Of a DNA stretch of 64,000 nucleotides, positions 1 through 22,059 are shown piece by piece. The DNA lies in NCBI RefSeq assembly GCF_988243305.1, contig NZ_OZ547136.1. One strand, 5' to 3'. Position 1 is the first letter of the stretch, and every line of letters begins with the position of its first letter. The position numbers and the translations under genes were made by a program. Under the pieces are notes generated by a model, which was not told where the DNA came from, made no database searches, and worked only from the letters and a program-made list of their open reading frames with translations.

Positions 1-1039
1 TTTTTTTTGAAACATGTCCCCGAAACGGGCTTAAGGGTCCGGAAGGGGATAAATCCTGCTCCAGAACATTATAGTGCTCAATAAATATTTTTTGCGCTTC
101 AGGCGAAAAATGCAGACAATACCGTTCATCCTCACTGGATTTTTCAATACTGCCTCTGGCCAGTTCCATTAATCGTTCATGAAATGCCGTTAATGATCCT
201 CCCGGAATCACAGCTCCGTTAATAAAGCGTTTCCCCTGCGTGGTTGCAGGTTTACTGATAAGACAACGGGCAAGAAAACCACTGTCCCTGGCAACAGAAC
301 CTTTTCGCTCCATATATCGGTCAAAAAGACCGGGTTGCACCATGAGGGATAACGTCATTCTGGCATTTTCAATCATCTGTTCGGGTTCATTCTTTCTGTC
401 CACAGACAATACAGAGCCATCCCACATTTTGTTAATAAAAGGCAACTCAGACAGGGTATATCCATCAAATATAATACCGGCTTCATCTGACATAATACCA
501 ACTGAACGCCATTTACCACAAAGCTGATTCTTAATTGCCGCAGTCGTGGCATCATTAAAAATGAATTTATACCTCACAGGTTCTTCCGCACTGTTTTTCT
601 GAAGTACTTCCAGTTGTCTGAGGGTTTCTGACTCATCCGCGCCTTTGCGGAGTTCTTTATTCAGTTTTGACAACAATGCTTTTTTCTGAGCCTTTAAAAG
701 CTCTTCCTTGTTTTTCCAGACAGCCAGTTCACTTTTGTATCTGGAATATAACTGCATCTCCTGCTGGTACAGGGGCTTCATTAATAATTTGTCCACTGCG
801 GTTTTTCGTTCTCCGGACTCGGCAAGCGTCAGGAAAAAAAGAGAGACCGGCCCCCGCAGTGTATTCAGTCTGCAGACATCAATCAGATTCTGGCAGACAA
901 GTGAAACAGCGCCCAGGGCAGACGCTGCCACAAGCCCAAGGGGAGCCTGCGTAATTTGCTGAGCTTCAATAACGGCATCACGAATGAGTGGAGGCAGCGA
1001 ACTCAGGGGAAACTCATCACAAGGCTGACCGAATGACAT
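1..1039 (-). CDS. hypothetical island-associated protein; C-terminus cut by window start
   Basis: Manual reverse-strand translation from ATG at 1039-1037 (MSFGQPCDEFPLSSLPPLIRD...) stays open to position 2 (about 346 codons); absent from ORF track because no stop lies inside the window; only short + strand ORFs overlap it. Confidence 0.45.
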   Translation of the reverse strand, partial: MSFGQPCDEFPLSSLPPLIRDAVIEAQQITQAPLGLVAASALGAVSLVCQNLIDVCRLNTLRGPVSLFFLTLAESGERKTAVDKLLMKPLYQQEMQLYSRYKSELAVWKNKEELLKAQKKALLSKLNKELRKGADESETLRQLEVLQKNSAEEPVRYKFIFNDATTAAIKNQLCGKWRSVGIMSDEAGIIFDGYTLSELPFINKMWDGSVLSVDRKNEPEQMIENARMTLSLMVQPGLFDRYMERKGSVARDSGFLARCLISKPATTQGKRFINGAVIPGGSLTAFHERLMELARGSIEKSSEDERYCLHFSPEAQKIFIEHYNVLEQDLSPSGPLSPFRGHVSKK

Positions 1040-2269
1040 AGTAACCTCACTATACACAGATATAAAAGCACTGCAATTCTGGCTATTAATAGCAAAAATA
1101 GCAGTCAAATCAATATGAGGTAAAATTTTTTGTTGATTTAATGGTTAAATAATAACCACAGTGTATTTTGCTGCTGAAGAAAGACAAAATGAATCTGTGT
1201 GTCCCCTCCTTCCCTTCGGAGCACATCCACTATTCAAATTTTACACAACCACGTACGAACAAAAAGCATCATCCCGGGTATTGCAGATACCGGTTTCCTG
1301 CCGGGAAGAATCATAAACAGAACACCGGGAATAACGCCTTCAGGAATCACCCCCCCTCCTGAAGAAGAATAAAATAAAGAAGACTACAGTTCCTGCACTG
1401 AATGCTGAGTACAATATTTTATGGACAGGATGACATTTTTATAAATAACAAAAACCATTTAATACTGATACATCAATAAAATACTTCTTCCCTGCTGACA
1501 CAGATAAAATGCACCATTTTTTCTTCAAATACTTCTGTATAATCGCCAGCCAATGATGAGAATGGATTAAAATAACACTTCTTCGACAAACACAAAAACA
1601 GCCTTCATTTTACATCATCATCCAGTTTCAGTTAACCCCGGACGAGCGACAGTGTTTCAGTACAGGAATTAAAAGCCAGCTTTTGCTCAGTAAAACACAC
1701 TCAACTAATAATATCTCAGCAGATATTATCCTGACCAGGACACCTCACATTACTGAATTCTCTTCCGACAGTATCACTGCACAAATAAAAAAGAACGGGA
1801 TAAATATTCAGACCGGAAGAATGGTGTCACAAAAGCATTTAATCATTACGCATGACCAGGAAGGGAAACACTTAACCACATGGTATCAACAGATATCATT
1901 ACGTGTGCACTCTTATAAAAAACACACAGAAGAAGTAAGATAATTATAAACGTAAATTTAATATCTCCCACTGACATCTCCCCCACAATACACTAAAAAA
2001 TACTCACAGCAGTAAACACAGACACACCTGATAATCATACAGCCGATAAATATTTTCCCCTTTACGGAGAAATCAGCCTGCTGTTTAACAATAACGGCGT
2101 ATTTTCATGGAAGGAGATCACCCAGTAACGGATAAGTCCTGATCTCCTTCATGTTAATACGCAACAATCCCATCGATTCAAAACAATTTCAGACAGATAT
2201 TATCTCCGTGAATCCCCCGCCACCTTTCCGGTGCGCGGGGTTTTGTCTTTTTTCACCGGGAATACATGT

Positions 2270-3142
2270 ATGAATCCGTCTGATGCCATTGAGGCAATTG
2301 AAAAACCGCTCTCCTCCCTGCCTTACTCACTTTCCCGTCACATCCTGGAACATCTGCGCAAACTCACCAGTCACGAACCCGTGATTGGCATTATGGGTAA
2401 AAGCGGGGCCGGTAAATCCTCACTCTGTAATGCACTGTTTCAGGGGGAGGTCACCCCGGTCAGTGATGTTCACGCCGGCACCCGGGAAGTGCGGCGCTTC
2501 CGTCTGAGTGGCCACGGTCACAGCATGGTTATCACTGACCTGCCCGGGGTGGGCGAGAGCCGGGACAGGGATGCAGAGTATGAAGCCCTGTACCGTGACA
2601 TTCTGCCCGAACTGGACCTGGTGCTGTGGCTGATTAAAGCCGATGACCGCGCCCTGTCTGTGGATGAGTATTTCTGGCGACACATCCTGCACCGGGGACA
2701 TCAGCAGGTGCTGTTTGTGGTGACGCAGGCCGACAAAACGGAGCCCTGCCATGAATGGGATATGGCCGGCATTCAGCCTTCTCCCGCACAGGCACAGAAC
2801 ATTCGGGAGAAAACGGAGGCGGTATTCCGTCTGTTCCGGCCCGTACATCCGGTTGTTGCCGTATCGGCCCGCACCGGCTGGGAACTGGATACGCTGGTCA
2901 GTGCGCTAATGACAGCACTTCCCGACCATGCCGCCAGTCCCCTGATGACCCGCCTGCAGGACGAGCTGCGCACGGAATCTGTCCGCGCTCAGGCCCGTGA
3001 ACAGTTTACCGGTGCGGTGGACCGGATATTTGACACGGCGGAGAGCGTCTGTGTTGCCTCTGTTGCCCGTACGGTTCTGCGTGCCGTCCGTGACACGGTG
3101 GTCTCTGTTGCCCGCGCTGTATGGAACTGGATTTTCTTCTGA
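2270..3142 (+). CDS. yeeP: YeeP/YfjP/YkfA-family GTPase (50S ribosome-binding GTPase-like)
   Basis: ORF 2231..3142; P-loop GIMGKSGAGKSSLCN and G3-like DLPGVGE motifs; ORF-track start is GTG at 2231, first in-frame ATG (MNPSD...) is at 2270; start choice uncertain. Confidence 0.7.
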   Translation: MNPSDAIEAIEKPLSSLPYSLSRHILEHLRKLTSHEPVIGIMGKSGAGKSSLCNALFQGEVTPVSDVHAGTREVRRFRLSGHGHSMVITDLPGVGESRDRDAEYEALYRDILPELDLVLWLIKADDRALSVDEYFWRHILHRGHQQVLFVVTQADKTEPCHEWDMAGIQPSPAQAQNIREKTEAVFRLFRPVHPVVAVSARTGWELDTLVSALMTALPDHAASPLMTRLQDELRTESVRAQAREQFTGAVDRIFDTAESVCVASVARTVLRAVRDTVVSVARAVWNWIFF

Positions 3143-3226
3143 ACAGTCTGCCAGGGAAATGCCTGATAACATTACGTTAACCAACTGAAAACATGACACA
3201 AACCCCTCATACTCCTCCTGTTTCTC

Positions 3227-3255
3227 TTGCGTGACCGCCTTGTCGTTAATAGAAT
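3227..3255 (+). promoter_or_regulatory. candidate sigma70 promoter of flu/agn43 (TTGCGT-17 bp-TAGAAT)
   Basis: -35-like ttgcgt 3227-3232, 17-bp spacer, -10-like tagaat 3250-3255, immediately upstream of the GATC cluster. Confidence 0.5.
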
Positions 3256-3260
3256 AAAAC

Positions 3261-3296
3261 GATCGATAAAACAGGTATTGATCGTTGCTATCGATC
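3261..3296. promoter_or_regulatory. three clustered GATC (Dam) sites; agn43 Dam/OxyR phase-variation region
   Basis: GATC at 3261-3264, 3280-3283 and 3293-3296 within 36 bp, about 220 bp upstream of the flu ATG; matches the known three-GATC OxyR operator architecture of agn43. Confidence 0.7.
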
Positions 3297-3513
3297 GTTT
3301 ATAGTGGTTAATGGTCTGCGAAAAGGCAGCTGAATCTCTTCATCATGCAGAACGGAATTGCACACAACGGACTGATACTTCTCTGGCGGATGAGAGAGGG
3401 GAAGCATTTATGTCCGGGAAAAACCACTTTATCTGAGCATGCTGTTTTGTACCTGCCGGTATCCACATTTGTGGGTACCGGCTTTTTTATTCACCCTCTG
3501 TAAGGAAAAGCTG

Positions 3514-6500
3514 ATGAAACGACATCTGAACACCAGCTACAGGCTGGTATGGAATCACATTACGGGCACCCTGGTGGTGGCCTCCGAACTGGCCCGCTCA
3601 CGGGGAAAACGCGCTGGTGTGGCGGTTGCGCTGTCTCTTGCTGCTGTCACATCAGTCCCGGCACTGGCTGCTGACAAGGTTGTACAGGCGGGAGAAACCG
3701 TGAACGACGGAACACTGACAAATCATGACAACCAGATTGTCCTCGGTACGGCCAACGGAATGACCATCAGTACCGGTCTGGAGTATGGGCCGGATAACGA
3801 GGCCAATACCGGCGGACAATGGATACAAAATGGCGGTATCGCCAACAACACTACTGTCACCGGTGGTGGTCTTCAGAGAGTGAATGCCGGAGGAAGCGTT
3901 TCAGACACGGTTATCAGTGCCGGAGGCGGACAGAGCCTTCAGGGGCAGGCAGTGAACACCACTCTGAACGGCGGTGAGCAGTGGGTACATGAAGGCGGGA
4001 TTGCAACGGGTACCGTCATTAATGAGAAGGGCTGGCAGGCCATCAAATCCGGCGCAGTGGCAACCGACACGGTTGTGAATACCGGCGCGGAAGGGGGACC
4101 GGATGCGGAAAATGGTGATACCGGGCAGACCGTCTACGGAGATGCCGTACGCACCACCATCAATAAAAATGGTCGTCAGATTGTGGCTGCTGAAGGAACG
4201 GCAAATACCACTGTGGTTTATGCCGGCGGCGACCAGACTGTACATGGTCACGCACTGGATACCACGCTGAATGGGGGGTACCAGTATGTGCACAACGGCG
4301 GTACGGCGTCTGGCACTGTTGTAAACAGTGACGGCTGGCAGATTGTCAAAAATGGGGGTGTGGCCGGGAATACCACCGTTAATCAGAAGGGCAGACTGCA
4401 GGTGGACGCCGGTGGTACAGCCACGAATGTCACCCTGAAGCAGGGCGGCGCACTGGTTACCAGTACGGCTGCAACCGTTACCGGCATAAACCGCCTGGGA
4501 GCATTCTCTGTTGTGGAGGGTAAAGCTGATAATGTCGTACTGGAAAATGGCGGACGCCTGGATGTGCTGACCGGACACACAGCCACTAATACCCGCGTGG
4601 ATGATGGCGGAACGCTGGATGTCCGCAACGGTGGCACCGCCACCACCGTATCCATGGGAAATGGCGGTGTACTGCTGGCCGATTCCGGTGCCGCTGTCAG
4701 TGGTACCCGGAGCGACGGAAAGGCATTCAGTATCGGAGGTGGTCAGGCGGATGCCCTGATGCTGGAAAAAGGCAGTTCATTCACGCTGAACGCCGGTGAT
4801 ACGGCCACGGATACCACGGTAAATGGCGGACTGTTCACCGCCAGGGGCGGCACACTGGCGGGCACCACCACGCTGAATAACGGCGCCATACTTACCCTTT
4901 CCGGGAAGACGGTGAACAACGATACCCTGACCATCCGTGAAGGCGATGCACTCCTGCAGGGAGGCTCTCTCACCGGTAACGGCAGCGTGGAAAAATCAGG
5001 AAGTGGCACACTCACTGTCAGCAACACCACACTCACCCAGAAAGCCGTCAACCTGAATGAAGGCACGCTGACGCTGAACGACAGTACCGTCACCACGGAT
5101 GTCATTGCTCAGCGCGGTACAGCCCTGAAGCTGACCGGCAGCACTGTGCTGAACGGTGCCATTGACCCCACGAATGTCACTCTCGCCTCTGGTGCCACCT
5201 GGAATATTCCCGATAACGCCACGGTGCAGTCGGTGGTGGATGACCTCAGCCATGCCGGACAGATTCATTTCACCTCCACCCGCACAGGGAAGTTCGTACC
5301 GGCAACCCTGAAAGTGAAAAACCTGAACGGACAGAATGGCACCATCAGCCTGCGTGTACGCCCGGATATGGCACAGAACAATGCTGACAGACTGGTCATT
5401 GACGGTGGCAGGGCAACCGGAAAAACCATCCTGAACCTGGTGAACGCCGGCAACAGTGCGTCGGGGCTGGCGACCAGCGGTAAGGGTATTCAGGTGGTGG
5501 AAGCCATTAACGGTGCCACCACGGAGGAAGGGGCCTTTATCCAGGGGAATAAGCTGCAGGCCGGTGCCTTTAACTACTCCCTCAACCGGGACAGTGATGA
5601 GAGCTGGTATCTGCGCAGTGAAAATGCTTATCGTGCAGAAGTCCCCCTGTATGCCTCCATGCTGACACAGGCAATGGACTATGACCGGATTCTGGCAGGC
5701 TCCCGCAGCCATCAGACCGGTGTAAGCGGTGAAAATAACAGCGTCCGTCTCAGCATTCAGGGCGGTCATCTCGGTCACGATAACAACGGCGGTATTGCCC
5801 GTGGAGCCACGCCGGAAAGCAGCGGCAGCTATGGCTTCGTCCGTCTGGAGGGTGACCTGCTCAGAACAGAGGTTGCCGGTATGTCTGTGACCGCGGGGGT
5901 ATATGGTGCTGCTGGCCATTCTTCCGTTGATGTTAAGGATGATGACGGCTCCCGTGCCGGCACGGTCCGGGATGATGCCGGCAGCCTGGGCGGATACCTG
6001 AATCTGATACACAACGCCTCCGGCCTGTGGGCTGACATTGTGGCCCAGGGAACCCGCCACAGCATGAAAGCCTCATCGGACAATAACGACTTCCGCGTCC
6101 GGGGCTGGGGCTGGCTGGGTTCGCTGGAAACCGGTCTGCCCTTCAGTATCACTGACAATCTGATGCTGGAGCCGCAACTGCAGTACACCTGGCAGGGACT
6201 CTCCCTGGATGACGGCCAGGATAACGCCAGTTATGTGAAGTTCGGGCATGGCAGTGCACAACATGTGCGTGCCGGCTTCCGTCTGGGCAGCCACCACGAT
6301 ATGAACTTTGGTAAAGGCACCTCATCCCGTGACACCCTGCGCGGCAGTGCCAAACACAGTGTGCGTGAACTGCCGGTGAACTGGTGGGTACAGCCTTCTG
6401 TTATCCGCACCTTCAGCTCCCGGGGGGGCATGAGCATGGGTACAGCCGCAGCCGGCAGTAACATGACGTTCTCACCGTCACAGAATGGTACGTCACTGGA

Positions 6501-6633
6501 CCTGCAGGCCGGACTGGAAGCCCGTGTCCGGGAAAATATCACCCTGGGCGTTCAGGCAGGTTATGTCCACAGCGTCAGCGGCAGCAGCGCTGAAGGCTAT
6601 AACGGTCAGGCCACGCTGAATGTGACCTTCTGA
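3514..6633 (+). CDS. flu: antigen 43 self-associating autotransporter
   Basis: ORF 3439..6633; canonical Ag43 N-terminus MKRHLNTSYRLVWNHITGTLVVASELARS begins at ATG 3514 after aaggaaaag; long beta-helical passenger with repetitive G/T/N-rich repeats and C-terminal beta-barrel ending in TLNVTF. Confidence 0.9.
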   Translation: MKRHLNTSYRLVWNHITGTLVVASELARSRGKRAGVAVALSLAAVTSVPALAADKVVQAGETVNDGTLTNHDNQIVLGTANGMTISTGLEYGPDNEANTGGQWIQNGGIANNTTVTGGGLQRVNAGGSVSDTVISAGGGQSLQGQAVNTTLNGGEQWVHEGGIATGTVINEKGWQAIKSGAVATDTVVNTGAEGGPDAENGDTGQTVYGDAVRTTINKNGRQIVAAEGTANTTVVYAGGDQTVHGHALDTTLNGGYQYVHNGGTASGTVVNSDGWQIVKNGGVAGNTTVNQKGRLQVDAGGTATNVTLKQGGALVTSTAATVTGINRLGAFSVVEGKADNVVLENGGRLDVLTGHTATNTRVDDGGTLDVRNGGTATTVSMGNGGVLLADSGAAVSGTRSDGKAFSIGGGQADALMLEKGSSFTLNAGDTATDTTVNGGLFTARGGTLAGTTTLNNGAILTLSGKTVNNDTLTIREGDALLQGGSLTGNGSVEKSGSGTLTVSNTTLTQKAVNLNEGTLTLNDSTVTTDVIAQRGTALKLTGSTVLNGAIDPTNVTLASGATWNIPDNATVQSVVDDLSHAGQIHFTSTRTGKFVPATLKVKNLNGQNGTISLRVRPDMAQNNADRLVIDGGRATGKTILNLVNAGNSASGLATSGKGIQVVEAINGATTEEGAFIQGNKLQAGAFNYSLNRDSDESWYLRSENAYRAEVPLYASMLTQAMDYDRILAGSRSHQTGVSGENNSVRLSIQGGHLGHDNNGGIARGATPESSGSYGFVRLEGDLLRTEVAGMSVTAGVYGAAGHSSVDVKDDDGSRAGTVRDDAGSLGGYLNLIHNASGLWADIVAQGTRHSMKASSDNNDFRVRGWGWLGSLETGLPFSITDNLMLEPQLQYTWQGLSLDDGQDNASYVKFGHGSAQHVRAGFRLGSHHDMNFGKGTSSRDTLRGSAKHSVRELPVNWWVQPSVIRTFSSRGGMSMGTAAAGSNMTFSPSQNGTSLDLQAGLEARVRENITLGVQAGYVHSVSGSSAEGYNGQATLNVTF

Positions 6634-6753
6634 CAGAACCATCGCCTCTCTGTGGTCCCGGTCATCATGATCGGGACCCGGACCGGCGCAACGGATATTC
6701 AACGCCACATTCGCTGGCATTAACAATAACATGATATTCATCACGGAGTGACT

Positions 6754-9270
6754 ATGTTACAGATAGTCGGCGCGCTGATCCTGCTGATCGCAGGATTTGC
6801 CATTCTTCGCCTTTTGTTCAGAGCATTAATCAGCACGGCTTCTGCGCTGGCAGGGCTCATATTGCTGTGTCTGTTCGGCCCGGCCTTACTGGCTGGCTAT
6901 ATCACCGAACGCATAACCCGGTTGTTCCATATTCGCTGGCTGGCAGGCGTATTTCTGACGATTGCCGGAATGATCATCAGCTTCATGTGGGGACTTGATG
7001 GTAAACATATCGCGCTGGAGGCTCACACCTTTGACTCTGTGAAATTTATTCTGACCACCGCTCTCGCCGGTGGTCTGCTGGCTGTTCCCCTGCAGATCAA
7101 AAACATTCAGCAGAACGGGATCACACCAGAAGATATCAGCAAGGAAATTAACGGGTATTACTGCTGTTTTTATACTGCCTTTTTCCTTATGGCGTGTTCT
7201 GCATGCGCACCATTGATCGCGTTACAGTACGATATTTCACCGTCACTGATGTGGTGGGGCGGGTTGTTGTACTGGCTGGCTGCATTAGTGACGCTGCTAT
7301 GGGCGGCCAGCCAAATCCAGGCGCTGAAAAAACTGACCTGTGCCATCAGCCAGACACTGGAAGAACAACCGGTGCTCAACAGTAAATCGTGGCTGACCAG
7401 TTTGCAAAACGATTACAGCCTTCCTGACTCACTGACGGAGCGCATCTGGCTGACGCTCATTTCTCAACGGATTTCCCGGGGAGAGCTGAGGGAATTTGAA
7501 CTGGCAGACGGAAACTGGTTACTGAACAATGCCTGGTATGAAAGAAACATGGCAGGGTTTAACGAACAGTTGAAAGAGAACCTGTCATTCACACCTGATG
7601 AACTGAAAACGCTCTTCCGGAACCGCCTGAATTTATCACCGGAAGCGAATGACGATTTTCTCGATCGTTGCCTGGACGGCGGTGACTGGTATCCCTTTTC
7701 AGAAGGTCGCCGTTTTGTATCATTCCATCACGTGGATGAGCTTCGTATCTGTGCCTCCTGCGGGCTGACAGAAGTACATCATGCCCCGGAAAATCATAAG
7801 CCGGATCCGGAATGGTACTGCTCCTCTCTTTGTCGCGAAACAGAAACACTGTGTCAGGAAATTTATGAACGCCCTTACAACAGCTTTATTTCCGATGCAA
7901 CGGCGAATGGTCTGATTCTCATGAAACTGCCGGAAACCTGGAGTACAAATGAGAAAATGTTTGCTTCCGGAGGGCAGGGACATGGGTTTGCCGCTGAACG
8001 GGGAAACCATATTGTCGACAGAGTCCGTCTGAAAAACGCACGGATCCTCGGTGATAATAATGCCAGAAATGGAGCAGACAGACTGGTCAGCGGAACAGAA
8101 ATCCAGACGAAATATTGTTCAACTGCAGCCCGTAGCGTCGGTGCGGCATTCGACGGACAAAACGGACAGTATCGTTACATGGGAAATAATGGCCCCATGC
8201 AACTGGAAGTCCCCCGTGATCAGTATGCCGGCGCTGTTGAAACCATGAGGAATAAGATCCGCGAAGGTAAAGTACCCGGTGTAACCGATCCCGCAGAAGC
8301 ATCCCGGCTGATTCGTCGGGGACATCTGACTTATACTCAGGCCCGTAATATCACCCGGTTCGGGACCATCGAATCGGTCACTTATGATATTGCCGAGGGT
8401 TCGGTTGTCAGTCTGGCGGCCGGAGGGATCAGTTTTGCCCTGACGGCATCGGTCTTCTGGCTCAGCACCGGCGATCGCGATGCTGCCCTGCAGACAGCTG
8501 CTGTCCAGGCAGGAAAAACCTTCACCCGCACACTGGCTGTCTACGTCACAACCCAGCAACTCCACCGGCTCAGTGTTGTTCAGGGTATGCTGAAGCACAT
8601 TGATTTTTCGACTGCCAGCCCGACTGTTCGACTGGCTCTTCAGAAGGGGACCGGTGCAGGAAATATCAGTGCCCTGAACAAAGTGATGAAGGGTACGCTG
8701 GTGACATCTCTGGCACTGGTAGCTGTCACAACCGGCCCTGACATGATCAAAATGTTGCGGGGACGGATCTCCGGTACGCAGTTCATCAGGAATCTTGCCG
8801 TGGCATCTTCCGGTGTGGCAGGTGGTGCTGTCGGGTCAGTGGCGGGCGGAATACTGTTCAGTCCACTGGGACCATTTGGTGCACTGACAGGGCGTGTGGT
8901 TGGCGGTGTTCTGGGGGGAATGATTGCCTCCGCTGTATCAGGAAAAATTGCCGGAGCGCTGGTTGAAGAAGATCGCGTCAAAATTCTGGCAATGATTCAG
9001 GAGCAGGTGACATGGCTTGCCGGCAGTTTCCTGCTGACCGGACATGAGATTGAAAATCTGAACGAGAATCTGGCCCGTGTTATCGATCAGAATGCTCTGG
9101 AGATCATTTTCGCCGCCGGTATACAACAACGGGCCGCGACCAATATGTTAATCAAACCACTGGTGGTCAGTATCATCAGGCAACGCCCCGTCATGGAATA
9201 TGATGCATCCCATCTCGGCAATATGGTTAACCGACTGGAAGAAGCATTACCCCCGGAGTTACCGGCATAA
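6754..9270 (+). CDS. yeeR: YeeR-like inner membrane protein (enlarged, about 838 aa)
   Basis: ORF 6748..9270; several hydrophobic N-terminal helices and a glycine-rich hydrophobic C-terminal block; sits directly after flu as yeeR does in CP4-44; ATG at 6754 preferred over GTG 6748 (ggag 5 nt upstream). Confidence 0.55.
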   Translation: MLQIVGALILLIAGFAILRLLFRALISTASALAGLILLCLFGPALLAGYITERITRLFHIRWLAGVFLTIAGMIISFMWGLDGKHIALEAHTFDSVKFILTTALAGGLLAVPLQIKNIQQNGITPEDISKEINGYYCCFYTAFFLMACSACAPLIALQYDISPSLMWWGGLLYWLAALVTLLWAASQIQALKKLTCAISQTLEEQPVLNSKSWLTSLQNDYSLPDSLTERIWLTLISQRISRGELREFELADGNWLLNNAWYERNMAGFNEQLKENLSFTPDELKTLFRNRLNLSPEANDDFLDRCLDGGDWYPFSEGRRFVSFHHVDELRICASCGLTEVHHAPENHKPDPEWYCSSLCRETETLCQEIYERPYNSFISDATANGLILMKLPETWSTNEKMFASGGQGHGFAAERGNHIVDRVRLKNARILGDNNARNGADRLVSGTEIQTKYCSTAARSVGAAFDGQNGQYRYMGNNGPMQLEVPRDQYAGAVETMRNKIREGKVPGVTDPAEASRLIRRGHLTYTQARNITRFGTIESVTYDIAEGSVVSLAAGGISFALTASVFWLSTGDRDAALQTAAVQAGKTFTRTLAVYVTTQQLHRLSVVQGMLKHIDFSTASPTVRLALQKGTGAGNISALNKVMKGTLVTSLALVAVTTGPDMIKMLRGRISGTQFIRNLAVASSGVAGGAVGSVAGGILFSPLGPFGALTGRVVGGVLGGMIASAVSGKIAGALVEEDRVKILAMIQEQVTWLAGSFLLTGHEIENLNENLARVIDQNALEIIFAAGIQQRAATNMLIKPLVVSIIRQRPVMEYDASHLGNMVNRLEEALPPELPA

Positions 9271-9345
9271 CGGCTATTCTGCGCCTTTTACGCTTTATCA
9301 CCTGATTTGTCAGTGTCATCGTCATGACTCAGAGAGGTAAATACC

Positions 9346-9801
9346 ATGATTCACCTGTTCAAAACCTGCATGATTACCGCCTTCATTCTGGGGTTAACGT
9401 GGTCTGCCCCACTCCGGGCACAGGATCAACGTTACATCAGTATACGCAATACAGATACGATATGGCTCCCGGGAAATATTTGTGCTTACCAGTTCCGGCT
9501 GGATAATGGCGGAAACGATGAAGGATTTGGCCCCCTCACCATCACTCTGCAACTCAAAGACAAATATGGTCAGACGCTGGTGACCAGAAAAATGGAAACG
9601 GAAGCTTTTGGTGACAGTAATGCCACGCGAACCACAGACGCATTTCTGGAAACGGAGTGCGTGGAAAATGTCGCCACAACCGAAATCATCAAAGCAACTG
9701 AAGAAAGTAACGGCCATCGTGTCAGTCTGCCGTTATCGGTTTTCAATCCCCAGGACTACCATCCACTGCTGATTACCGTTTCCGGAAAAAACGTTAACTG
9801 A
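9346..9801 (+). CDS. hypothetical secreted protein (signal peptide)
   Basis: ORF with N-terminal signal-like sequence MIHLFKTCMITAFILGLTWSAPLRA; gagagg RBS 8 nt upstream. Confidence 0.5.
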   Translation: MIHLFKTCMITAFILGLTWSAPLRAQDQRYISIRNTDTIWLPGNICAYQFRLDNGGNDEGFGPLTITLQLKDKYGQTLVTRKMETEAFGDSNATRTTDAFLETECVENVATTEIIKATEESNGHRVSLPLSVFNPQDYHPLLITVSGKNVN

Positions 9802-9879
9802 TCCCTGAAGTCAGTTTCATGCTTCAGCCTCTGTCACAACGCGTGGCAGAGGCTTTTTATTTATCAGGAGAAAACAGAT

Positions 9880-10113
9880 ATGCCGGGTTACACAGAGTAT
9901 GTCCTGGCTGAAGGATCTTTCTCATACGGGCAGGCGGTTGCTGTCATAACCGCTTACCGCAATGTGTTTATCCAGGATGACCCGGGAATGCATTTCCGTC
10001 GGGTTATCCGCAACGCGGAAGGTCAGCGACGCTGGCGCTGCCGGAATTCTGAACCCGATGCCGGAAAGGTGCTTAATACGCGGCTCGCCAGTGACGGTCT
10101 TCTCAGACAATAA
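9880..10113 (+). CDS. small island protein (DUF905/YkfF-like by position)
   Basis: 77-aa ORF with aggag RBS; occupies the slot of the small DUF905 gene preceding DUF932 in CP4-type modules; family assignment from memory only. Confidence 0.4.
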
Positions 10114-10212
10114 ACGTCATTCATTTCACCCATCAGGCCGCGTCTTCTCCGGGAGACGTGGCTTTTTCATTTATTACACCAGTAAATCTTAACCACCGAT
10201 AAGGAGCAAATT

Positions 10213-11031
10213 ATGCGACTAGCCAGTCGTTTTGGTTATGCGAACCAGATACGCCGTGACCGTCCGCTGACACACGAAGAACTGATGCACTATGTGCCGG
10301 GGATTTTCGGGGAAGATAAACACACGTCCCGAAGCCAGAACTATACGTACATCCCCACCATCACCGTACTGGAAAGCCTGCAGCGGGAAGGCTTTCAGCC
10401 ATTCTTCGCCTGCCAGACCCGTGTGCGCGACCCGGGCCGCCGGGGATACACAAAACACATGCTGCGTCTGCGGCGGGCCGGAGAGATAAACGGAGAACAT
10501 GTCCCTGAAATTATTCTGCTCAACTCTCATGACGGTACCTCCAGCTACCAGATGCTGCCGGGTTACTTCAGGTTCGTCTGCCAGAACGGATGCGTCTGTG
10601 GTCAGTCTCTGGGGGAAGTGCGTGTTCCGCACCGGGGAAATGTGGTGGACAGAGTCATTGAAGGGGCTTACGAGGTGGTGGGCGTGTTTGACCGGATTGA
10701 GGAAAAGCGTGATGCCATGCAGTCGCTGATTCTGCCGCCACCGGCACGCCAGGCGCTGGCACAGGCGGCACTGACTTACCGTTATGGTGACGAACATCAG
10801 CCCGTCACCACCGCCGACATTCTGACGCCACGACGCCGGGAGGATTACGGTAAGGACCTGTGGAGTGCTTATCAGACCATTCAGGAGAATATGCTGAAAG
10901 GCGGAATTTCAGGTCGCAGCGCTAAAGGAAAACGTATCCATACCCGTGCCATTCACAGCATTGACACTGACATTAAGCTCAACCGCGCATTGTGGGTGAT
11001 GGCGGAAACCCTGCTGGAGAGCCTGCGCTGA
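10213..11031 (+). CDS. DUF932 family protein (YfjQ/YafZ-like)
   Basis: 272-aa ORF with aaggag RBS; length and position match the YfjQ/YafZ family of CP4 prophage-like islands. Confidence 0.6.
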   Translation: MRLASRFGYANQIRRDRPLTHEELMHYVPGIFGEDKHTSRSQNYTYIPTITVLESLQREGFQPFFACQTRVRDPGRRGYTKHMLRLRRAGEINGEHVPEIILLNSHDGTSSYQMLPGYFRFVCQNGCVCGQSLGEVRVPHRGNVVDRVIEGAYEVVGVFDRIEEKRDAMQSLILPPPARQALAQAALTYRYGDEHQPVTTADILTPRRREDYGKDLWSAYQTIQENMLKGGISGRSAKGKRIHTRAIHSIDTDIKLNRALWVMAETLLESLR

Positions 11032-11085
11032 TTCAGCCATTACCCTGAAAACCACGCATTTATTTGTCCTTTAAGGAGTCATTTC

Positions 11086-11571
11086 ATGAAAACCATTTCA
11101 CATAATTCCACCACATCTTCTGTTTCCGTAACCGCTGCATCAGGGAATGACCAGCCTCAGTTGGTTGCCACCCTCGTCCCTGATGAACAGCGCATCAGCT
11201 TCTGGCCGCAGCACTTTGGCCTCATTCCACAGTGGGTGACCCTGGAGCCCCGTGTCTTCGGCTGGATGGACCGTCTGTGTGAAGACTACTGCGGTGGTAT
11301 CTGGAATCTGTACACCCTGAACAACGGCGGGGCATTTATGGCACCCGAACCGGATGACGATGATGACGAAACATGGGTACTGTTCAATGCCATGAACGGT
11401 AACCGCGCTGAAATGAGTCCGGAAGCTGCCGGCATTGCTGCCTGTCTGATGACGTACAGTCATCATGCCTGTCGTACGGAGTGTTATGCCATGACGGTCC
11501 ATTATTACCGGCTGCGGGATTACGCCCTGCAGCATCCGGAATGCAGCGCCATTATGCGCATCATCGACTGA
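11086..11571 (+). CDS. antirestriction protein (ArdB/KlcA-like, YfjX/YafX family)
   Basis: 161-aa ORF, aaggag RBS, acidic DDDDDE stretch; conserved position upstream of the radC-like gene. Confidence 0.6.
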   Translation: MKTISHNSTTSSVSVTAASGNDQPQLVATLVPDEQRISFWPQHFGLIPQWVTLEPRVFGWMDRLCEDYCGGIWNLYTLNNGGAFMAPEPDDDDDETWVLFNAMNGNRAEMSPEAAGIAACLMTYSHHACRTECYAMTVHYYRLRDYALQHPECSAIMRIID

Positions 11572-11586
11572 ATGGAGAGAAGTACA

Positions 11587-12063
11587 ATGCAACAGCTTTC
11601 CTTTCTGCCCGGAGAGATGACGCCCGGCGAGCGCAGCCTCATTCAACGGGCCCTGAAAACCCTGGACCGCCATCTTCATGAACCCGGCGTGGCCTTCACC
11701 TCCACCCGTGCGGCACGAGAATGGCTGATTCTGAACATGGCGGGACTGGAGCGTGAAGAGTTCCGGGTGCTGTATCTGAACAACCAGAATCAGCTGATTG
11801 CCGGTGAAACCCTCTTCACCGGCACCATCAACCGCACGGAAGTCCATCCCCGTGAAGTGATTAAACGCGCCCTGTATCACAATGCCGCTGCTGTGGTGCT
11901 GGCACACAATCACCCGTCCGGTGAAGTCACACCCAGCAAGGCAGACCGCCTTATCACGGAACGTCTGGTACAGGCACTGGGCCTGGTGGATATCCGGGTG
12001 CCGGACCATCTGATAGTCGGTGGCAGCCAGGTTTTCTCCTTTGCCGAACATGGTCTGCTTTAA
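11587..12063 (+). CDS. yeeS: RadC-like JAB-domain protein
   Basis: JAMM-like motif HNHPSGEVTPSKADRLIT; K-12 YeeS-like N-terminus MQQLSFLPGEMTPGERS at ATG 11587 (ORF-track start 11572). Confidence 0.75.
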   Translation: MQQLSFLPGEMTPGERSLIQRALKTLDRHLHEPGVAFTSTRAAREWLILNMAGLEREEFRVLYLNNQNQLIAGETLFTGTINRTEVHPREVIKRALYHNAAAVVLAHNHPSGEVTPSKADRLITERLVQALGLVDIRVPDHLIVGGSQVFSFAEHGLL

Positions 12064-12125
12064 CCCGTCACAACCACATCACACCTGTTTTCACTTTTAT
12101 CTTCTGTCTTCAGAGGTATCCCACT

Positions 12126-12347
12126 ATGAAAATCATCACCCGTGGCGAAGCCATGCGTATTCACCGTCAGCATCCGGCATCCCGTCTTTTTCCGTTCTGT
12201 ACCGGCAAATACCGCTGGCACGGCAGTGCTGAAGCGTATACCGGTCGTGAAGTGCAGGATATTCCCGGTGTGCTGGCCGTATTTGCAGAACGCCGTAAGG
12301 ACAGTTTTGGTCCGTATGTCCGGCTGATGAGCGTCACCCTGAACTGA
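12126..12347 (+). CDS. yeeT: DUF987 small protein
   Basis: 73-aa ORF MKIITRGEAMRIHRQHPASRLFPFCTGKYRWHG, in the conserved position upstream of cbeA. Confidence 0.6.
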   Translation: MKIITRGEAMRIHRQHPASRLFPFCTGKYRWHGSAEAYTGREVQDIPGVLAVFAERRKDSFGPYVRLMSVTLN

Positions 12348-12509
12348 TGTTCCGTCACCCGGAAAACGAGTACGACTGGCTGAGCTCAGACGCCGCTGTG
12401 GATGAGGTCCTGCTCATCAACGAATACACCTTTACCGAAGCCGGTCTGCGCGCCGGCTGACCCGTCATCGTTAAACTATCATTCACCGATTTTCTGTGAG
12501 GATTTTATC

Positions 12510-12878
12510 GTGTCAGACACACTTTCCGGGACAACGCATCCCGATGACAATGACGACCATCCCTGGTGGGGACTACCCTGCACAGTGACGCCCTGTTTCG
12601 GCGCCCGTCTGGTGCAGGAGGGTAACCGCCTGCATTACCTTGCCGACCGCGCCGGTATCAGAGGCCTGTTCAGCGATGCAGATGCGTACCACCTGGACCA
12701 GGCCTTTCCGCTGCTGATGAAACAACTGGAACTCATGCTCACCAGCGGTGAACTGAATCCCCGCCATCAGCATACCGTCACGCTGTATGCAAAAGGTCTG
12801 ACCTGCAAAGCTGACACTCTCGGTAGCGGTGGTTACGTTTATCTGGCTGTTTATCCGACGCCCGAAACGAAAAAGTAA
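12510..12878 (+). CDS. cbeA: CbeA antitoxin (YeeU family, type IV TA)
   Basis: In-frame GTG at 12510 gives a 122-aa product [38 protein letters not shown]...; the ORF-track start at 12402 is probably an upstream extension. Confidence 0.8.
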
Positions 12879-12967
12879 ACCACCGGAATAACCTTCTGCT
12901 CCGGCCTGGTGCTTTCACCACGCCACTTTTCCATTTTTCATCTCTGCATATCAGGAAAACCTTCAGT

Positions 12968-13342
12968 ATGAAAACATTACCCGATACACACGTACGGGAG
13001 GCATCGAGCTGCCCGTCTCCCGTCACCATCTGGCAGACTCTGCTCTCCCGACTACTGGGCCAGCATTACGGCCTTACACTGAATGACACACCGTTCGCCG
13101 ATGAACGTGTGATTGAGCAGCATATTGAAGCTGGCATTTCACTGTGTGATGCGGTGAATTTTCTCGTGGAAAAATACGCGCTGGTGCGTACCGACCAGCC
13201 GGGATTCAGCACTTGTCCCCGCTCTCAGTTAATAAACAGTATTGATATCCTCCGGGCTCGCAGGGCGACCGGCCTGATGACCCGCGACAATTACAGAACG
13301 GTAAATAACATTACCCTGGGTAAGCATCCGGAGAAACGATGA
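12968..13342 (+). CDS. cbtA: CbtA toxin (YeeV family; cytoskeleton-targeting)
   Basis: 124-aa ORF immediately downstream of cbe[71 protein letters not shown]. Confidence 0.8.
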
Positions 13343-13827
13343 AACTTTCCCTGATGCTGGAAGCCGACAGAATTAATGTGCAGGCACTGAACATGGGGCG
13401 AATTGTCGTTGACGTCGATGGTGTTAATCTCACTGAACTGATTAACAAGGTCGCTGAAAACGGTTATTCACTCCGCGTGGTGGAGGAATCCGACCAACAG
13501 TCAACCTGCACACTACCACCGTTTGCAACCCTTGCCGGCATACGCTGCAGTACCGCACATATCACGGAAAAGGATAACGCCTGGCTGTACTCGCTGTCGC
13601 ATCAGACCAGTGACGTTGGTGAATCAGAATGGATTCATTTCACAGGTAGCGGATATCTGTTACGTACCGATGCGTGGTCATATCCGGTTCTGCGGCTTAA
13701 ACGCCTGGGGCTGTCAAAAACGTTCCGTCGTCTGGTTATCACACTTACCCGACGTTATGGCGTCAGTCTCATTCATCTGGATGCCAGCGCTGAATGCCTG
13801 CCGGGTTTACCCACTTTCAACTGGTAA
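13339..13827 (+). CDS. yeeW: YeeW-like protein
   Basis: 162-aa ORF overlapping the cbtA stop by 4 bp (ATGA), the position yeeW holds in CP4-44. Confidence 0.5.
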
Positions 13828-13838
13828 CCAGGAACAAC

Positions 13839-14036
13839 ATGAAATCATTAACCACGGAAACCGCACTGGATATTCTGATTGCGTGGCTGCAGGACAATAT
13901 CGACTGCGAATCGGGAATTATCTTTGACAACAATGAGGATAAAACGGATTCAGCAGCACTGTTGCCCTGTATCGAACAGGCCAGAGAGGATATCCGTACC
14001 CTGCGCCAACTGCAGCTTCAGCACCAGAACCGGTGA
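13839..14036 (+). CDS. small hypothetical protein (65 aa)
   Basis: ATG at 13839 preceded by aggaa; followed by a clear terminator. Confidence 0.35.
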   Translation: MKSLTTETALDILIAWLQDNIDCESGIIFDNNEDKTDSAALLPCIEQAREDIRTLRQLQLQHQNR

Positions 14037-14066
14037 GTCTTACTCACCAGACTTCATTCCACTGAC

Positions 14067-14097
14067 GCCAGCCTGAACAGGGCTGGCATTTTCATTT
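14067..14097 (+). terminator. rho-independent terminator
   Basis: Stem gccagcc (14067-14073) / ggctggc (14081-14087), loop tgaacag, then attttcattt. Confidence 0.6.
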
Positions 14098-14753
14098 ATC
14101 TGCAAAAAGGAATATCGATTATGTCTGATATCACAGCCTACCGTCCGGAAGTGGTCAACGAGAATACGGACGTTATCTGCTCAACCAGCATCCGCCGCAT
14201 TCTGGCTGTACGAAAGAGTTCACTGCTGCAAATCGACACAATTATCCGGCATCAAGTGAGCGATATCAGTTAACAGATATAGATGGAGAAGATGCTTTTA
14301 TCCGGATTGGTTCTATCGCGATGGTGCGAGTACTACTTGATGCAATGAAGCCTGTCGAGGAAGATGACGAGTAACAGAGCTCGGTATCTCAATCAGGAGC
14401 TGATTGTCCTGGTTCGATGCCGAAAACCAGTGATTTTTCGTGTTGGTATCTGTGTTGGTATAAGATGATATTGTTTATTATTAACAATTTTAAATCATGA
14501 GGTTAAGTCACATGTTTGAGTCCGGCCTTCGCACCTTCGCACCTTCGCACCATCGGAACATCAATAGACATCAACGGACGTTTTTTTATGACTGAAATCC
14601 GCGCCACACAAGGCTTTTCGCTATTTTTCGCTCAACCTAAGTCAACCTACATCAACTTACTGATGTGGATACAGCTACAGCTGCGGCTATACCCCGATTC
14701 GATAATGTTTGTACCCACACAAAACCCTTGAAAGGCTACAAGGCTGAAATTGT

Positions 14754-15238: not shown

Positions 15239-15317
15239 GCCTGCAAGTGAAGATATATTACCTTGATCTCATTTGTTTTTTTGCTGCCTGTTCTGAGAAC
15301 GTATAAGGACATTCTCC

Positions 15318-15968: not shown

Positions 15969-15975
15969 TGAACGC

Positions 15976-22049: not shown

Positions 22050-22059
22050 AACTGTCCAT

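Follow-up and report, generated by a model that had tools for sequence, protein, structure and literature searches.

Genes and Features of the Locus

Between its first position and nanS the window (the whole stretch of 64,000 nucleotides that was analysed) carries the features listed below. Genes were called using Pfam and the RefSeq annotation of the near-identical genomes B7A and NCTC10973.

1–1039, minus strand: YfjI-family (DUF3987) gene with its 5' end outside the window (RefSeq, identical coordinates in B7A and NCTC10973)
1040–2269, no strand: AT-rich spacer, ~37% GC (composition profile; no ORF of at least 100 aa in the ORF list)
2270–3142, plus strand: YeeP/YfjP-type GTPase, 290 aa (Pfam MMR_HSR1, E = 1e-14; RefSeq 'GTPase family protein')
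3259–3495, plus strand: agn43 regulatory region with an IsrC/IS102-type sRNA match (Rfam RF00124, 69.9 bits, E = 5e-10) and three GATC sites
3514–6633 (start 3439 or 3514), plus strand: agn43/flu, intact, encoding the Ag43 self-associating autotransporter, 1039 aa (Pfam ESPR, five AIDA, AC_1, Autotransporter)
6754–9270 (start 6748 or 6754), plus strand: YeeR, full-length, 838 aa (BLASTP)
9346–9801, plus strand: IrmA family gene (Pfam IrmA, E = 2e-37)
9880–10113, plus strand: DUF905 gene (Pfam, E = 1e-17)
10213–11031, plus strand: DUF932 gene (Pfam, E = 7e-52; phrog_12094, E = 5e-128, function unknown)
11086–11571, plus strand: antirestriction protein (Pfam Antirestrict, E = 2e-37; PHROG 'anti-restriction protein', E = 1e-63)
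11587–12063 (start 11572 or 11587), plus strand: YeeS, RadC-like JAB domain protein (Pfam RadC, E = 2e-44)
12126–12347, plus strand: YeeT (DUF987; Pfam, E = 2e-40)
12510–12878 (start 12402 or 12510), plus strand: CbeA/YeeU type IV antitoxin (Pfam CbeA_antitoxin, E = 1e-52, profile positions 1–100 of 101)
12968–13342, plus strand: CbtA type IV toxin, intact (Pfam CbtA_toxin, E = 1e-61, profile positions 1–112 of 112)
13339–13827, plus strand: YeeW (DUF5983), 162 aa, both domains (Pfam DUF5983_N and DUF5983)
13839–14036, plus strand: DUF957 gene, name from RefSeq alone (annotation in B7A and NCTC10973)
14121–14374, plus strand: fused fragments, DUF4942 gene 5' end and HTH regulator gene 3' end (RefSeq pseudogene)
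14516–14552, plus strand: attR, a displaced degenerate leuX 3' end (TTTGAGTCCGGCCTTCG CACC TTCGCACC TTCGCACCA; match to leuX)
14553–14739, no strand: flank with a decayed leuX terminator (alignments)
14996–15238, minus strand: remnant, N-terminal part only, of a gene for a phosphorothioated-DNA-binding restriction endonuclease (NCBIfam NF045808, E = 2e-16, profile positions 2–45 of 284 only; RefSeq pseudogene)
15318–15968, plus strand: HNH endonuclease gene, the final variable gene ahead of nanS (RefSeq annotation)
15976–16956, minus strand: nanS, intact, the first gene common to K-12 (BLASTP, 318 of 326 residues, 98%, identical to K-12 NanS)

All genes that a preliminary description had named in a CP4-44/CP4-57-type module at 2231–13827 were recovered by Pfam and in the annotation of the near-identical genomes, on the plus strand and with the order and coordinates it reported. 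The Pfam E-values in this range ran from 1e-14 to 1e-62, well outside chance, and the module and K-12 CP4-44 share 96–97% DNA identity over their overlapping parts. The IrmA gene was absent from that earlier gene list, and the element exceeds the flagged range, leftward past the window start and rightward to the att repeat. The YfjI-family gene at the window start, whose full-length copy in NCTC10973 matched DUF3987 (Pfam, E = 1e-95), is part of a CP4-57-type backbone, and in the relatives Gp2/YfjJ-like and AlpA-like genes accompany it just upstream of the module. The GTPase frame is open from a GTG at 2231, leaving 2231 or 2270 as its start, and this gene is 95.9% identical in DNA to the yeeP fragment of K-12; the yeeS-yeeT segment is 97% identical to its K-12 counterpart. 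The DUF957 gene had no Pfam or NCBIfam match in our own profile searches. The fused fragments at 14121–14374 are the decayed end of the element, and the same DUF4942/HTH fusion is found in ST131 AR_0104 at ~89% identity.

The Ag43 protein comprises ESPR, AIDA repeats, autochaperone and beta-barrel (Pfam), and from just 5' of agn43 to the first part of yeeR (3450–8274) the window is 96.5% identical in DNA to K-12 CP4-44. The GATC sites upstream of agn43 (3261, 3280 and 3293) are spaced by 19 and 13 nt, the same as at K-12 flu, and would constitute a Dam/OxyR phase switch. The YeeR of K-12 (510 aa) was identical to the window's protein at 507 of 507 residues (BLASTP), beyond which the latter continues for 331 more; judged from this alignment, the K-12 protein is a truncated copy of the 838-aa form, to which no family was assigned in Pfam, NCBIfam or PHROG.

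Right Boundary of the Element

The attR repeat lies 690 nt past yeeW and contains a 14-nt exact core (leuX positions 66–79, same orientation), which was matched once in 64 kb against 0.01 expected; the earlier suggestion of a leuX-associated island is thereby supported. The repeat is imperfect, with one G absent and an 8-mer triplicated. The breakpoint relative to strain I4, which is without the 39.5-kb module-bearing element described below, falls within 14516–14552, and this interval is the right boundary of that element. For the flank beyond it, homologous DNA lies in the leuX-integrase spacer of both K-12 and B27, as well as directly 3' of leuX in an 'empty-site' genome, the empty-site search having returned two genomes in which leuX is followed directly by the flank, the HNH gene and nanS. 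The HNH gene is not in K-12, to which homology begins at window position 15973, three bases ahead of the nanS stop (blastn breakpoint). The variable leuX-nanS interval is bounded by nanS, after which come nanM, nanC and fimB, so that the module does lie upstream of nanS-nanM-nanC-fimB as previously described.

Upstream Structure and Frequency of the Arrangement

No tRNA and no integrase were found in the 64 kb of the window. Since the window stops short of leuX, the upstream structure of the source genome is inferred here from B7A and NCTC10973, each with nine differences from window positions 1–16000, and not seen directly. The search upstream for leuX and an integrase that the preliminary description had called for was run in these two genomes; both lie ~35 kb upstream, with fecIRABCDE between, and on this ground the reading as a leuX island holds. 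The expectation of an integrase stood only in part, as that of NCTC10973 belongs to a separate element. The array in NCTC10973 begins with leuX, followed by a 7.3-kb element that encodes a 636-aa tyrosine integrase; after a perfect 25-nt repeat of leuX come the 39.5-kb module-bearing element, which has no integrase, attR, a 1.4-kb remnant and nanS. The junctions of the array are exactly at GGTTCGAGTCCGGCCTTCGGCACCA. The two relatives differ from one another upstream, B7A having the same right-hand part preceded by an intact integrase, IntB (P4-type), as one unit with no internal att, and the integrase-less state could therefore be simple decay. Each unit also occurs alone in other strains with junctions precisely at the att core: the 7.3-kb element in strain I4, and the module-bearing element directly 3' of leuX in S88 and ATCC 11775. 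Outside the island (39001–64000) the source genome reached at best 98.4% identity to any complete RefSeq E. coli, and, given this divergence, a third version of the left part may be present there.

Junctions were counted in 5426 complete genomes. The window's exact right junction was present in 295 (5.4%), the tandem junction in 286, leuX joined directly to the module-bearing element in 67, the flank-HNH-nanS junction (HNH gene contiguous with nanS) in 881 and the K-12-type yjhR-nanS junction in 1570; most genomes have other DNA in the leuX-nanS interval. The module at this position is thus a minority arrangement (295 vs 1570 of the K-12 type). Per genome, modules of this kind matched at a median of 4 places.

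Interpretation and Alternative Explanations

We consider it very probable that an integrative genomic island of the known 'Fec + Ag43' type has inserted into the 3' end of tRNA-leuX and that window positions 1–14552 are its distal, attR-side portion. The island's backbone is of the CP4-57/CP4-44 type (YfjJ-like, AlpA-like, YfjI, GTPase, DUF932, antirestriction, RadC, DUF987, CbeA/CbtA, YeeW and DUF957), and its cargo comprises the phase-variable agn43-yeeR-irmA operon inside the window and, upstream of it, a predicted fecIRABCDE. Dam/OxyR would control the switching of Ag43 and IrmA through the three conserved GATC sites. Units may be gained and lost by site-specific recombination at the leuX core, with putative excision, and the integrase-less element would now be mobile only in trans or via homologous recombination of its flanks. 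CbtA/CbeA may aid retention of the island, and the antirestriction, RadC and DUF932 genes have putative roles in establishment after transfer. KpLE2 of K-12 would be a relative that lost the module by an IS1F-adjacent deletion.

The preliminary description had the module lying here instead of at its K-12 locus, and this did not hold: NCTC10973 retains a CP4-44-type island between cobU and tmaR, modules are multicopy, and the module at leuX is an extra copy, not a relocated one. A move of CP4-44 itself from the cobU-side locus to leuX is thus quite improbable and, for the NCTC10973 lineage, largely refuted. Such a move would fit the near-identity of 3450–8274 and of YeeR with K-12, as well as the cobU-side island of NCTC10973, which has dynamin, RdcB and patatin genes at the position of flu in K-12, so that Ag43 is on the leuX copy only in that lineage. 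However, that island is full, with its own GTPase, DUF932, antirestriction, yeeS, yeeT, cbeA, cbtA and yeeW genes, the att repeats of the element at leuX are specific to leuX, modules occupy several places per genome, and exchange of flu-yeeR between paralogous islands accounts for the similarity with no move needed. A still inducible prophage or P4-like phage satellite is scarcely credible and is effectively refuted by gene content. The K-12 relatives CP4-44 and CP4-57 are called 'cryptic prophages', leuX is the attachment site of phage P4, and AlpA-like, YfjI and Gp2/YfjJ-like genes lie just upstream; yet genes for capsid, tail, packaging, lysis or primase, and P4 genes of the psu/sid/delta type, are all missing, the PHROG matches were confined to antirestriction, a RadC family labelled 'DNA repair' and families with no known function, the element is without an integrase, and the true P4-like satellite that strain B27 carries at this att is quite different in its genes.

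The age and the mode of arrival of the island are separate matters. Collinearity between K-12 and S88 extends over IS911/IS30, fec and IS1F, after which K-12 is without 27.3 kb including the module and resumes at yjhU; as this gap begins exactly at the right end of IS1F, KpLE2 appears to have arisen by deletion from an island that bore the module. It is conceivable, though we rather doubt it, that a leuX Fec island bearing the module is the older state and that the window keeps it, the K-12 form being derived. Besides this gap, the fec block is 99.3–99.8% identical across K-12, S88, NCTC10973 and B7A, ATCC 11775 has a module-bearing leuX island too, and ST131 AR_0104 carries a related module that terminates at a leuX-type att, with an R-M system behind it such as has been reported for GI-leuX of ST131 strain EC958. 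Against this stand the low frequency of the exact right junction, the differing DNA between leuX and nanS in most genomes, and the yjh/sgc segment, which is common to K-12 and S88 and missing from the window, so that the latter is not simply the ancestor of K-12. As to arrival, we give even chances to replacement of the resident leuX-nanC interval by a larger donor segment (island and nanS-nanM-nanC) through homologous recombination in flanking core DNA, which bears solely on how the island arrived and does not conflict with the island reading preferred above. From position 1 to ~19800 the window has 10 differences from NCTC10973 and 10 from B7A, followed by 108 differences from NCTC10973 (~3.4%) at 19800–23000, and the core beyond is 96.8–97.3% identical to NCTC10973 (best 98.4% in any complete genome); near-identity extending past attR to ~19.8 kb points to homologous recombination over integration in this lineage. 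The break in identity falls in the nanC-fimB intergenic region, 5 kb past attR. However, the left end of the transferred block is outside view, and fim is a known recombination hotspot, at which the break could instead be a fim replacement in either lineage.

Comparison with Known Systems

In Streptococcus thermophilus, integrative elements are described that accrete in tandem with integrase-less partners mobilisable in cis (CIME/ICE accretion). The tandem units of NCTC10973 resemble this case in their internal att copy and in pairing one unit with an integrase and one att-flanked unit without; they differ in being without conjugation genes, and are known here at the level of sequence. The SRL island of Shigella flexneri integrates at serX. 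In the summary of it (Luck et al., 2001, summarised in PMC6980539) it is described as integrase-bearing, with a fec operon and backbone-type ORFs such as DUF4942, and to the extent of that description it resembles the leuX island, from which it differs by a 16-kb multiresistance locus.

The agn43-yeeR-irmA operon is known from PAIs at several tRNAs, in PAI-CFT073-serX/-pheV, EC958 and AGI-3 module 5 (Moriel et al., 2016, PMC4807369), and from the duplicated ~17-kb flu-yeeR-irmA 'region 2' of EAEC 042 (PMC6480617). These copies have the same three-gene order and OxyR/Dam-type regulatory region, with toxin-antitoxin and unknown-function genes alongside, in tRNA-linked islands and in multicopy, but their sites are serX, pheV or selC; for them, co-transcription and control by OxyR were demonstrated, and both are presumed for the window. 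K-12 CP4-44 shares the backbone order (GTPase, flu, yeeR, yeeS, yeeT, cbeA, cbtA, yeeW), the 96–97% identity holding over flu-yeeR and yeeS-yeeT, and the same GATC switch and IsrC, and CP4-57 (ssrA) has AlpA, YfjI and YfjJ homologues, whereas the attachment site of the window's element is leuX and not that of CP4-44 (cobU side) or CP4-57. The window copy is the fuller form: a 3.3-kb deletion in CP4-44 (window 8275–11610) truncates yeeR and removes irmA, DUF905, DUF932 and the antirestriction gene, and yeeP and yeeW are also truncated.

The placement of KpLE2 downstream of tRNA-leuX in K-12, as stated in the preliminary description, was borne out, the order there being leuX, intB', fec, yjh/sgc, yjhR and nanS. 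KpLE2 occupies the same leuX-nanS interval, and its cargo, which had been thought different, is so in part: the IS911/IS30-fecEDCBA-fecRI block is common (99.3–99.7% identical) and the module is missing from K-12. It further differs on its left side by an intB pseudogene, IS2, IS4 and nanXY and on its right side by yjhU through sgc to yjhR, and is without the CP4-type backbone, Ag43, attR and the HNH gene. The leuX islands PAI-S88-leuX ('Fec, Ag43', 39 kb) and PAI-ED1a-leuX ('MsbB2, VirK, fec, Ag43') are already published (Desvaux et al., 2020, PMC7545054), as is the agn43-yeeR-irmA operon. PAI-S88-leuX, with ATCC 11775 of the same island type, shares the leuX insertion, an AbiJ-NTD4 gene after the att core (99.95%, S88 vs NCTC10973), the IS30/IS3-fec block, a phytase-like esterase, IS66, a Zn-ribbon pair, Gp2/YfjJ-like and AlpA-like genes, GTPase, an Ag43-family adhesin, DUF905, DUF932, antirestriction, JAB, DUF987 and YeeU/CbtA. 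S88 differs in that the 7.3-kb integrase element in front is missing, IS1F and 2 kb follow fecI, the Ag43 allele is of the Cah type without yeeR and irmA, an ISEc12 insertion and a truncated cbtA are present, and attR is missing, with mtnKA and yjh/sgc genes after the island instead of attR-HNH-nanS; compared with the window's relative, the identity of its module is mosaic (89–99%). The island of the window is thus of a type, combining iron-citrate uptake with the Ag43 adhesin, that is already catalogued in other E. coli strains.

Gene content of the module

The gene order given in the preliminary description, with all genes on the plus strand, was borne out by the ORF list, by Pfam and by the RefSeq annotation of near-identical genomes; the irmA gene, which had not been named there, was added.

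Genes of the module (window positions, strand, product, source of the assignment)
2270-3142, plus: GTPase, reading frame open from the GTG at 2231 (Pfam, RefSeq annotation of relatives)
3514-6633, plus: Ag43 (agn43/flu) (Pfam, RefSeq annotation of relatives)
6754-9270, plus: YeeR, 838 aa (ORF list, RefSeq annotation of relatives)
9346-9801, plus: IrmA (Pfam)
9880-10113, plus: DUF905 (Pfam)
10213-11031, plus: DUF932 (Pfam)
11086-11571, plus: antirestriction (Pfam)
11587-12063, plus: RadC/JAB (Pfam)
12126-12347, plus: DUF987 (Pfam)
12510-12878, plus: CbeA (Pfam CbeA_antitoxin, profile 1-100 of 101, E=1e-52)
12968-13342, plus: CbtA (Pfam CbtA_toxin, profile 1-112 of 112, E=1e-61)
13339-13827, plus: YeeW/DUF5983 (Pfam)
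13839-14036: DUF957 (RefSeq annotation of relatives), followed by two fused gene fragments, nanS, nanM, nanC and fimB

The CP4-44/CP4-57 backbone was recovered in order (Pfam), from the GTPase through the adhesin, YeeR, antirestriction, RadC/JAB, DUF987, CbeA and CbtA to YeeW, and the type IV toxin-antitoxin pair is formed by intact, adjoining CbeA and CbtA genes with the antitoxin upstream and a gap of 89 nt (Pfam). The Pfam, NCBIfam and PHROG scans returned no family match for DUF957, YeeR, the DUF4942 fragment and a 72-aa ORF at 14754-14972 (minus). An AT-rich stretch of 1.2 kb with no sizeable ORFs (1040-2269, ~37% GC) separates a YfjI-like gene from the GTPase gene; because a hypothetical gene of ~300-380 aa occupies the equivalent place in S88, the strain with PAI-S88-leuX, and in the NCTC10973 island next to cobU, this stretch may be the remnant of a gene or a silencing region of the H-NS type.

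A prophage or P4-like satellite was ruled out as the identity of the element by the lack of virion, packaging, lysis, P4-type primase and capsid-redirection genes (PHROG on 10 module proteins; Pfam), and the label ‘prophage’ is nominal. The PHROG matches of the 10 proteins were limited to antirestriction, RadC-type and function-unknown families.

The agn43, yeeR and irmA genes follow each other on one strand with short gaps (3514-6633, 6754-9270 and 9346-9801, all plus). Three GATC sites of the Dam/OxyR switch lie upstream of agn43 at 3261, 3280 and 3293, spaced by 19 and 13 nt as in K-12 flu, and the regulatory region matches the IsrC/IS102 sRNA family (Rfam). The agn43-yeeR-irmA operon, its OxyR control, the islands at serX, pheV and selC that carry it and its truncation in K-12 have all been published, co-transcription and OxyR repression having been addressed in EC958 and CFT073 by RT-PCR or with an oxyR mutant (PMC4807369). 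By analogy with that work, expression of Ag43 and IrmA from the window copy would be phase-variable under Dam/OxyR control. A ~17-kb region with flu, yeeR, irmA and the toxin-antitoxin genes is duplicated in several pathotypes (PMC6480617).

Boundaries and upstream structure of the island

At 14518-14531 the window matches the 3' end of leuX (leuX positions 66-79) exactly over 14 nt, in leuX orientation, and this match is embedded in TTTGAGTCCGGCCTTCGCACCTTCGCACCTTCGCACCA (14516-14552); it is unique within the 64-kb window, where 0.01 such matches are expected by chance. Compared with the leuX end, 14516-14552 lacks one G and contains the 8-mer TTCGCACC three times, and it is read as attR, a degenerate displaced tRNA end. 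The breakpoint of strain I4, which carries no copy of the module-bearing element, also falls within this direct repeat, in which the 3' end of the tRNA recurs at the distal boundary. The 8-mer TTCGCACC is present in three copies in the window and in NCTC10973, in five in I4 (L004, the I4 locus, 8975-9030) and in one in ST131 AR_0104 and in B27 (L006 8620-8650 and L005 5985-6015, the loci of these two strains), and it behaves like a small microsatellite within the att site.

Window 1-22000 is 99.8% identical to many genomes, and over 1-16000 there are 9 differences to B7A and 9 to NCTC10973. The tRNA scan found no tRNA gene in the whole 64-kb window; leuX lies ~35 kb upstream of window position 1 in both relatives. 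In NCTC10973, leuX adjoins ahr and is accompanied by a tyrosine recombinase of 636 aa (Phage_integrase and DUF6538), with fecIRABCDE between these and the window. Comparison with I4 resolved the NCTC10973 locus into a tandem array of leuX, a 7.3-kb element, a perfect 25-nt copy of the leuX end, a 39.5-kb element and attR.

Units of the tandem array in NCTC10973
7.3-kb element: integrase, NIPSNAP, DUF1643, serine recombinase, two hypothetical proteins, HTH gene
39.5-kb element, left part: AbiJ-NTD4, IS30/IS3/group II intron, fec, phytase-like esterase, IS66
39.5-kb element, right part: two Zn-ribbon genes, YfjJ/Gp2-like, AlpA-like, YfjI, the module

I4 has only the 7.3-kb element, with breakpoints exactly in the att cores. 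In S88 and in ATCC 11775, the type strain, leuX is followed immediately by an element of the 39.5-kb type. In B7A, leuX is followed by an intact IntB (P4-type, 422 aa), dptFGH and dndBCDE, an IS3 fragment and then the right part common with the window, and no internal att was found between leuX and this shared part. The left part therefore varies among strains sharing the island of the window. The integrases next to leuX in the two relatives are unrelated, the 636-aa DUF6538 protein belonging to the separate 7.3-kb unit and the 422-aa IntB/P4 protein to the same unit as its cargo; tblastn with both integrase types detected no integrase or remnant in the window or in the 39.5-kb element. The preliminary description had placed leuX and an integrase upstream on the assumption of a leuX-associated island: the leuX-derived repeat at 14516-14552 and the leuX gene upstream in near-identical relatives agree with this, and both predicted features are present in the NCTC10973 and B7A variants, from which the window's own left part is extrapolated.

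The 636-aa recombinase (18819-20729 of L002, the leuX locus of NCTC10973, and 1762-3672 of L004) is unusually long, with an N-terminal DUF6538 domain, and gives no significant BLASTP match to the IntB/P4 type (best E = 0.5), yet the same leuX core is used. O157:H7 genomes have an element with a right end related to that of the 7.3-kb element (89.5% identity).

The stretch between attR and nanS

The 1.4 kb between attR and nanS (14553-15972) comprise a decayed terminator, part of a gene for a phosphorothioate-dependent restriction endonuclease (NCBIfam) and an HNH endonuclease gene. Our first view of this stretch as plain chromosomal flank was put in doubt by an alignment (A1) showing homology of the initial 187 nt to the spacer between leuX and the integrase gene in K-12 and B27, and because of this homology the stretch may be an arm, now fixed, of an older P4-type element from which the integrase has been lost. 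It may instead be the native leuX trailer: in a second alignment (A2) the same 187 nt show homology to the sequence immediately behind leuX in an empty-site genome, where the terminator hairpin is intact. Empty-site genomes fit both the native-flank and the fixed-remnant readings.

As gene content, the stretch is a small decayed defence islet next to nanS, with the 45 first codons of the gene for the restriction endonuclease of phosphorothioated DNA (minus) and an intact 216-aa HNH endonuclease gene, for which Pfam gave no match and NCBIfam a weak sub-threshold one (E=0.0019, 17 bits vs a cut-off of 180). The islet is shared by B7A, in which the opposite end of the same island encodes a complete dnd/dpt system for phosphorothioation. 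The adjacent nanS gene (15976-16956) has 326 intact codons in the window and 98% identity to K-12 NanS; RefSeq annotates nanS as an incomplete pseudogene in B7A, NCTC10973, I4 and GN06156, either a real lesion or an annotation artefact.

Frequency of the leuX-nanS arrangements

Junctions were counted in 5426 complete genomes.

Junctions in the leuX-nanS interval (number of genomes)
Module end-attR-HNH-nanS: 295 (5.4%)
attR flank-HNH-nanS, any upstream content: 881
K-12 yjhR-nanS: 1570
7.3-kb element-att-39.5-kb element: 286
leuX joined directly to the 39.5-kb element: 67
leuX followed directly by flank-RE'-HNH-nanS: 2, plus one interrupted by IS1

The island is thus variably present, its right junction occurring in 295/5426 genomes beside many alternative fillings, and the arrangement in the window is a minority state, which speaks against its being the ancestral one in most E. 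coli. Defence islands are among the alternative contents: type I R-M and TIR genes in GN06156, a P4-like satellite with Dpd genes in B27, and R-M and McrBC genes after att in ST131 AR_0104, the last in line with the R-M system that GI-leuX is reported to encode in ST131 strain EC958.

Comparison with the K-12 elements

K-12 has KpLE2 downstream of leuX, as the preliminary description states, in the order leuX, intB', fec, yjh/sgc, yjhR and then nanS, these genes up to yjhR forming KpLE2. Homology to the K-12 locus begins at window 15973, three bases ahead of the nanS stop, and the KpLE2 cargo between fec and nanS (yjhU-yjhI, the sgc operon, yjhPQ/topAI, yjhR) was not found, 1-15972 having no such homology. 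The KpLE2 and NCTC10973 loci have in common ahr-leuX, the IS911/IS30-fec block (99.3-99.7%) and the DNA from nanS onward. The proposal of a different cargo accordingly holds for the yjh/sgc segment, which is absent from the window, but not for the IS911/IS30-fec block, which KpLE2 shares with the relatives. KpLE2 is collinear with S88 through fec and IS1F, lacks 27.3 kb that start exactly where IS1F ends on its right side, and is collinear again from yjhU; the missing DNA comprises the whole CP4-type backbone, an Ag43/Cah gene, mtnK and mtnA (24473-25340 of the K-12 locus, L003, vs 15017-43160 of the S88 locus, L007). The simplest reading of this gap would be an IS1-adjacent deletion in the K-12 lineage, under which KpLE2 would be a decayed member of the same island family and not unrelated cargo; this would bear on the reading of the label ‘phage-like element’ in the K-12 reference annotation.

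The CP4-44 segments of K-12 are 89-97% identical in DNA to the window module, in the same order, with 96-97% over flu-yeeR and yeeS-yeeT. CP4-44 has a 3.3-kb deletion corresponding to window 8275-11610; K-12 YeeR (510 aa) is therefore cut short, and irmA, DUF905, DUF932 and the antirestriction gene are missing. The first 507 residues of the 838-aa window YeeR are 100% identical to the K-12 protein (BLASTP). The module had been thought to lie at leuX instead of at its K-12 locus, which NCTC10973 contradicts by keeping a CP4-44-type island at cobU-tmaR with its own GTPase, DUF932, antirestriction, yeeS, yeeT, cbeA, cbtA and yeeW genes. Matches to the module occurred at a median of 4 places per genome; the copy at leuX is an extra, paralogous island and has not been relocated. 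The initial interpretation, a leuX-associated island, was right in substance, with its ‘instead of’ and its simple ‘different cargo’ corrected. At cobU-tmaR of NCTC10973 (L009 25143-29508), dynamin-family, RdcB-family and patatin-like phospholipase genes occupy the position of flu in K-12. The slot for cargo behind the GTPase gene is exchangeable.

Mode of arrival

Near-identity to B7A and NCTC10973 runs past attR through nanS, nanM and nanC to ~19.8 kb, with ~10 differences in the first 19.8 kb, and divergence then jumps to ~3.4% (108 differences in the next 3.2 kb). The break falls at ~19800-19950 in the nanC-fimB intergenic region, 5 kb past the end of the island, and is taken as a recombination breakpoint. 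This extension of near-identity beyond attR suggests that, in the source lineage, homologous recombination brought in the island along with the core genes next to it. Backgrounds that are 2-3% apart in the core DNA nearby have nearly identical copies of the island and nanSMC, pointing to a recent spread by horizontal transfer.

The remaining window has 96.8-97.3% identity to NCTC10973, the content of which differs at window 40769-51251. Since no complete RefSeq E. coli exceeds 98.4% identity over 39001-64000 (the best match), the source lineage is poorly represented among complete genomes. Genes in this core segment are kptA, a 5.2-kb iatD inverse-autotransporter gene, yjiJ, yjiK, a pentapeptide-repeat gene, yjiL, yjiM, yjiN, mdtM, an rpn gene, yjiR, yjiS and type I R-M hsdR/hsdS.

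Putative mechanism and relation to known islands

The set of genes, the att repeats, the discrete units joined at exact positions and the conservation of the GATC switch were observed directly; from established knowledge of such elements, site-specific recombination acting on the leuX core would have assembled the array. In CP4-57, both the expression of the integrase and excision are under the control of AlpA-type regulators. The CbtA/CbeA pair may help the island to be retained, and the antirestriction gene with its conserved neighbours may aid establishment after transfer. A joint reading, speculative and in our estimate rather improbable as a whole, would make the 39.5-kb Fec-Ag43 unit a non-autonomous element, flanked by att sites and lacking an integrase, that persists at leuX and is moved in trans by an adjacent leuX-specific integrase (the DUF6538 type of the 7.3-kb element, or IntB), the leuX locus growing and shrinking by accretion of independent units and the right-end block (DUF932, antirestriction, RadC, DUF987, CbeA/CbtA, YeeW, DUF957) being an establishment-plus-addiction cassette common to all such units.

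Because leuX is a well-known integration hotspot, Fec and Ag43 islands at leuX are listed for S88 and ED1a, and the operon is published, the present analysis adds little beyond an explicit anatomy of the locus, in which the att junctions are placed exactly and one architecture is a tandem array, another a single unit headed by IntB. This kind of element is catalogued already as PAI-S88-leuX (‘Fec, Ag43’) and PAI-ED1a-leuX (PMC7545054), and the agn43-yeeR-irmA operon has likewise been described before, including its occurrence in several islands linked to tRNA genes.
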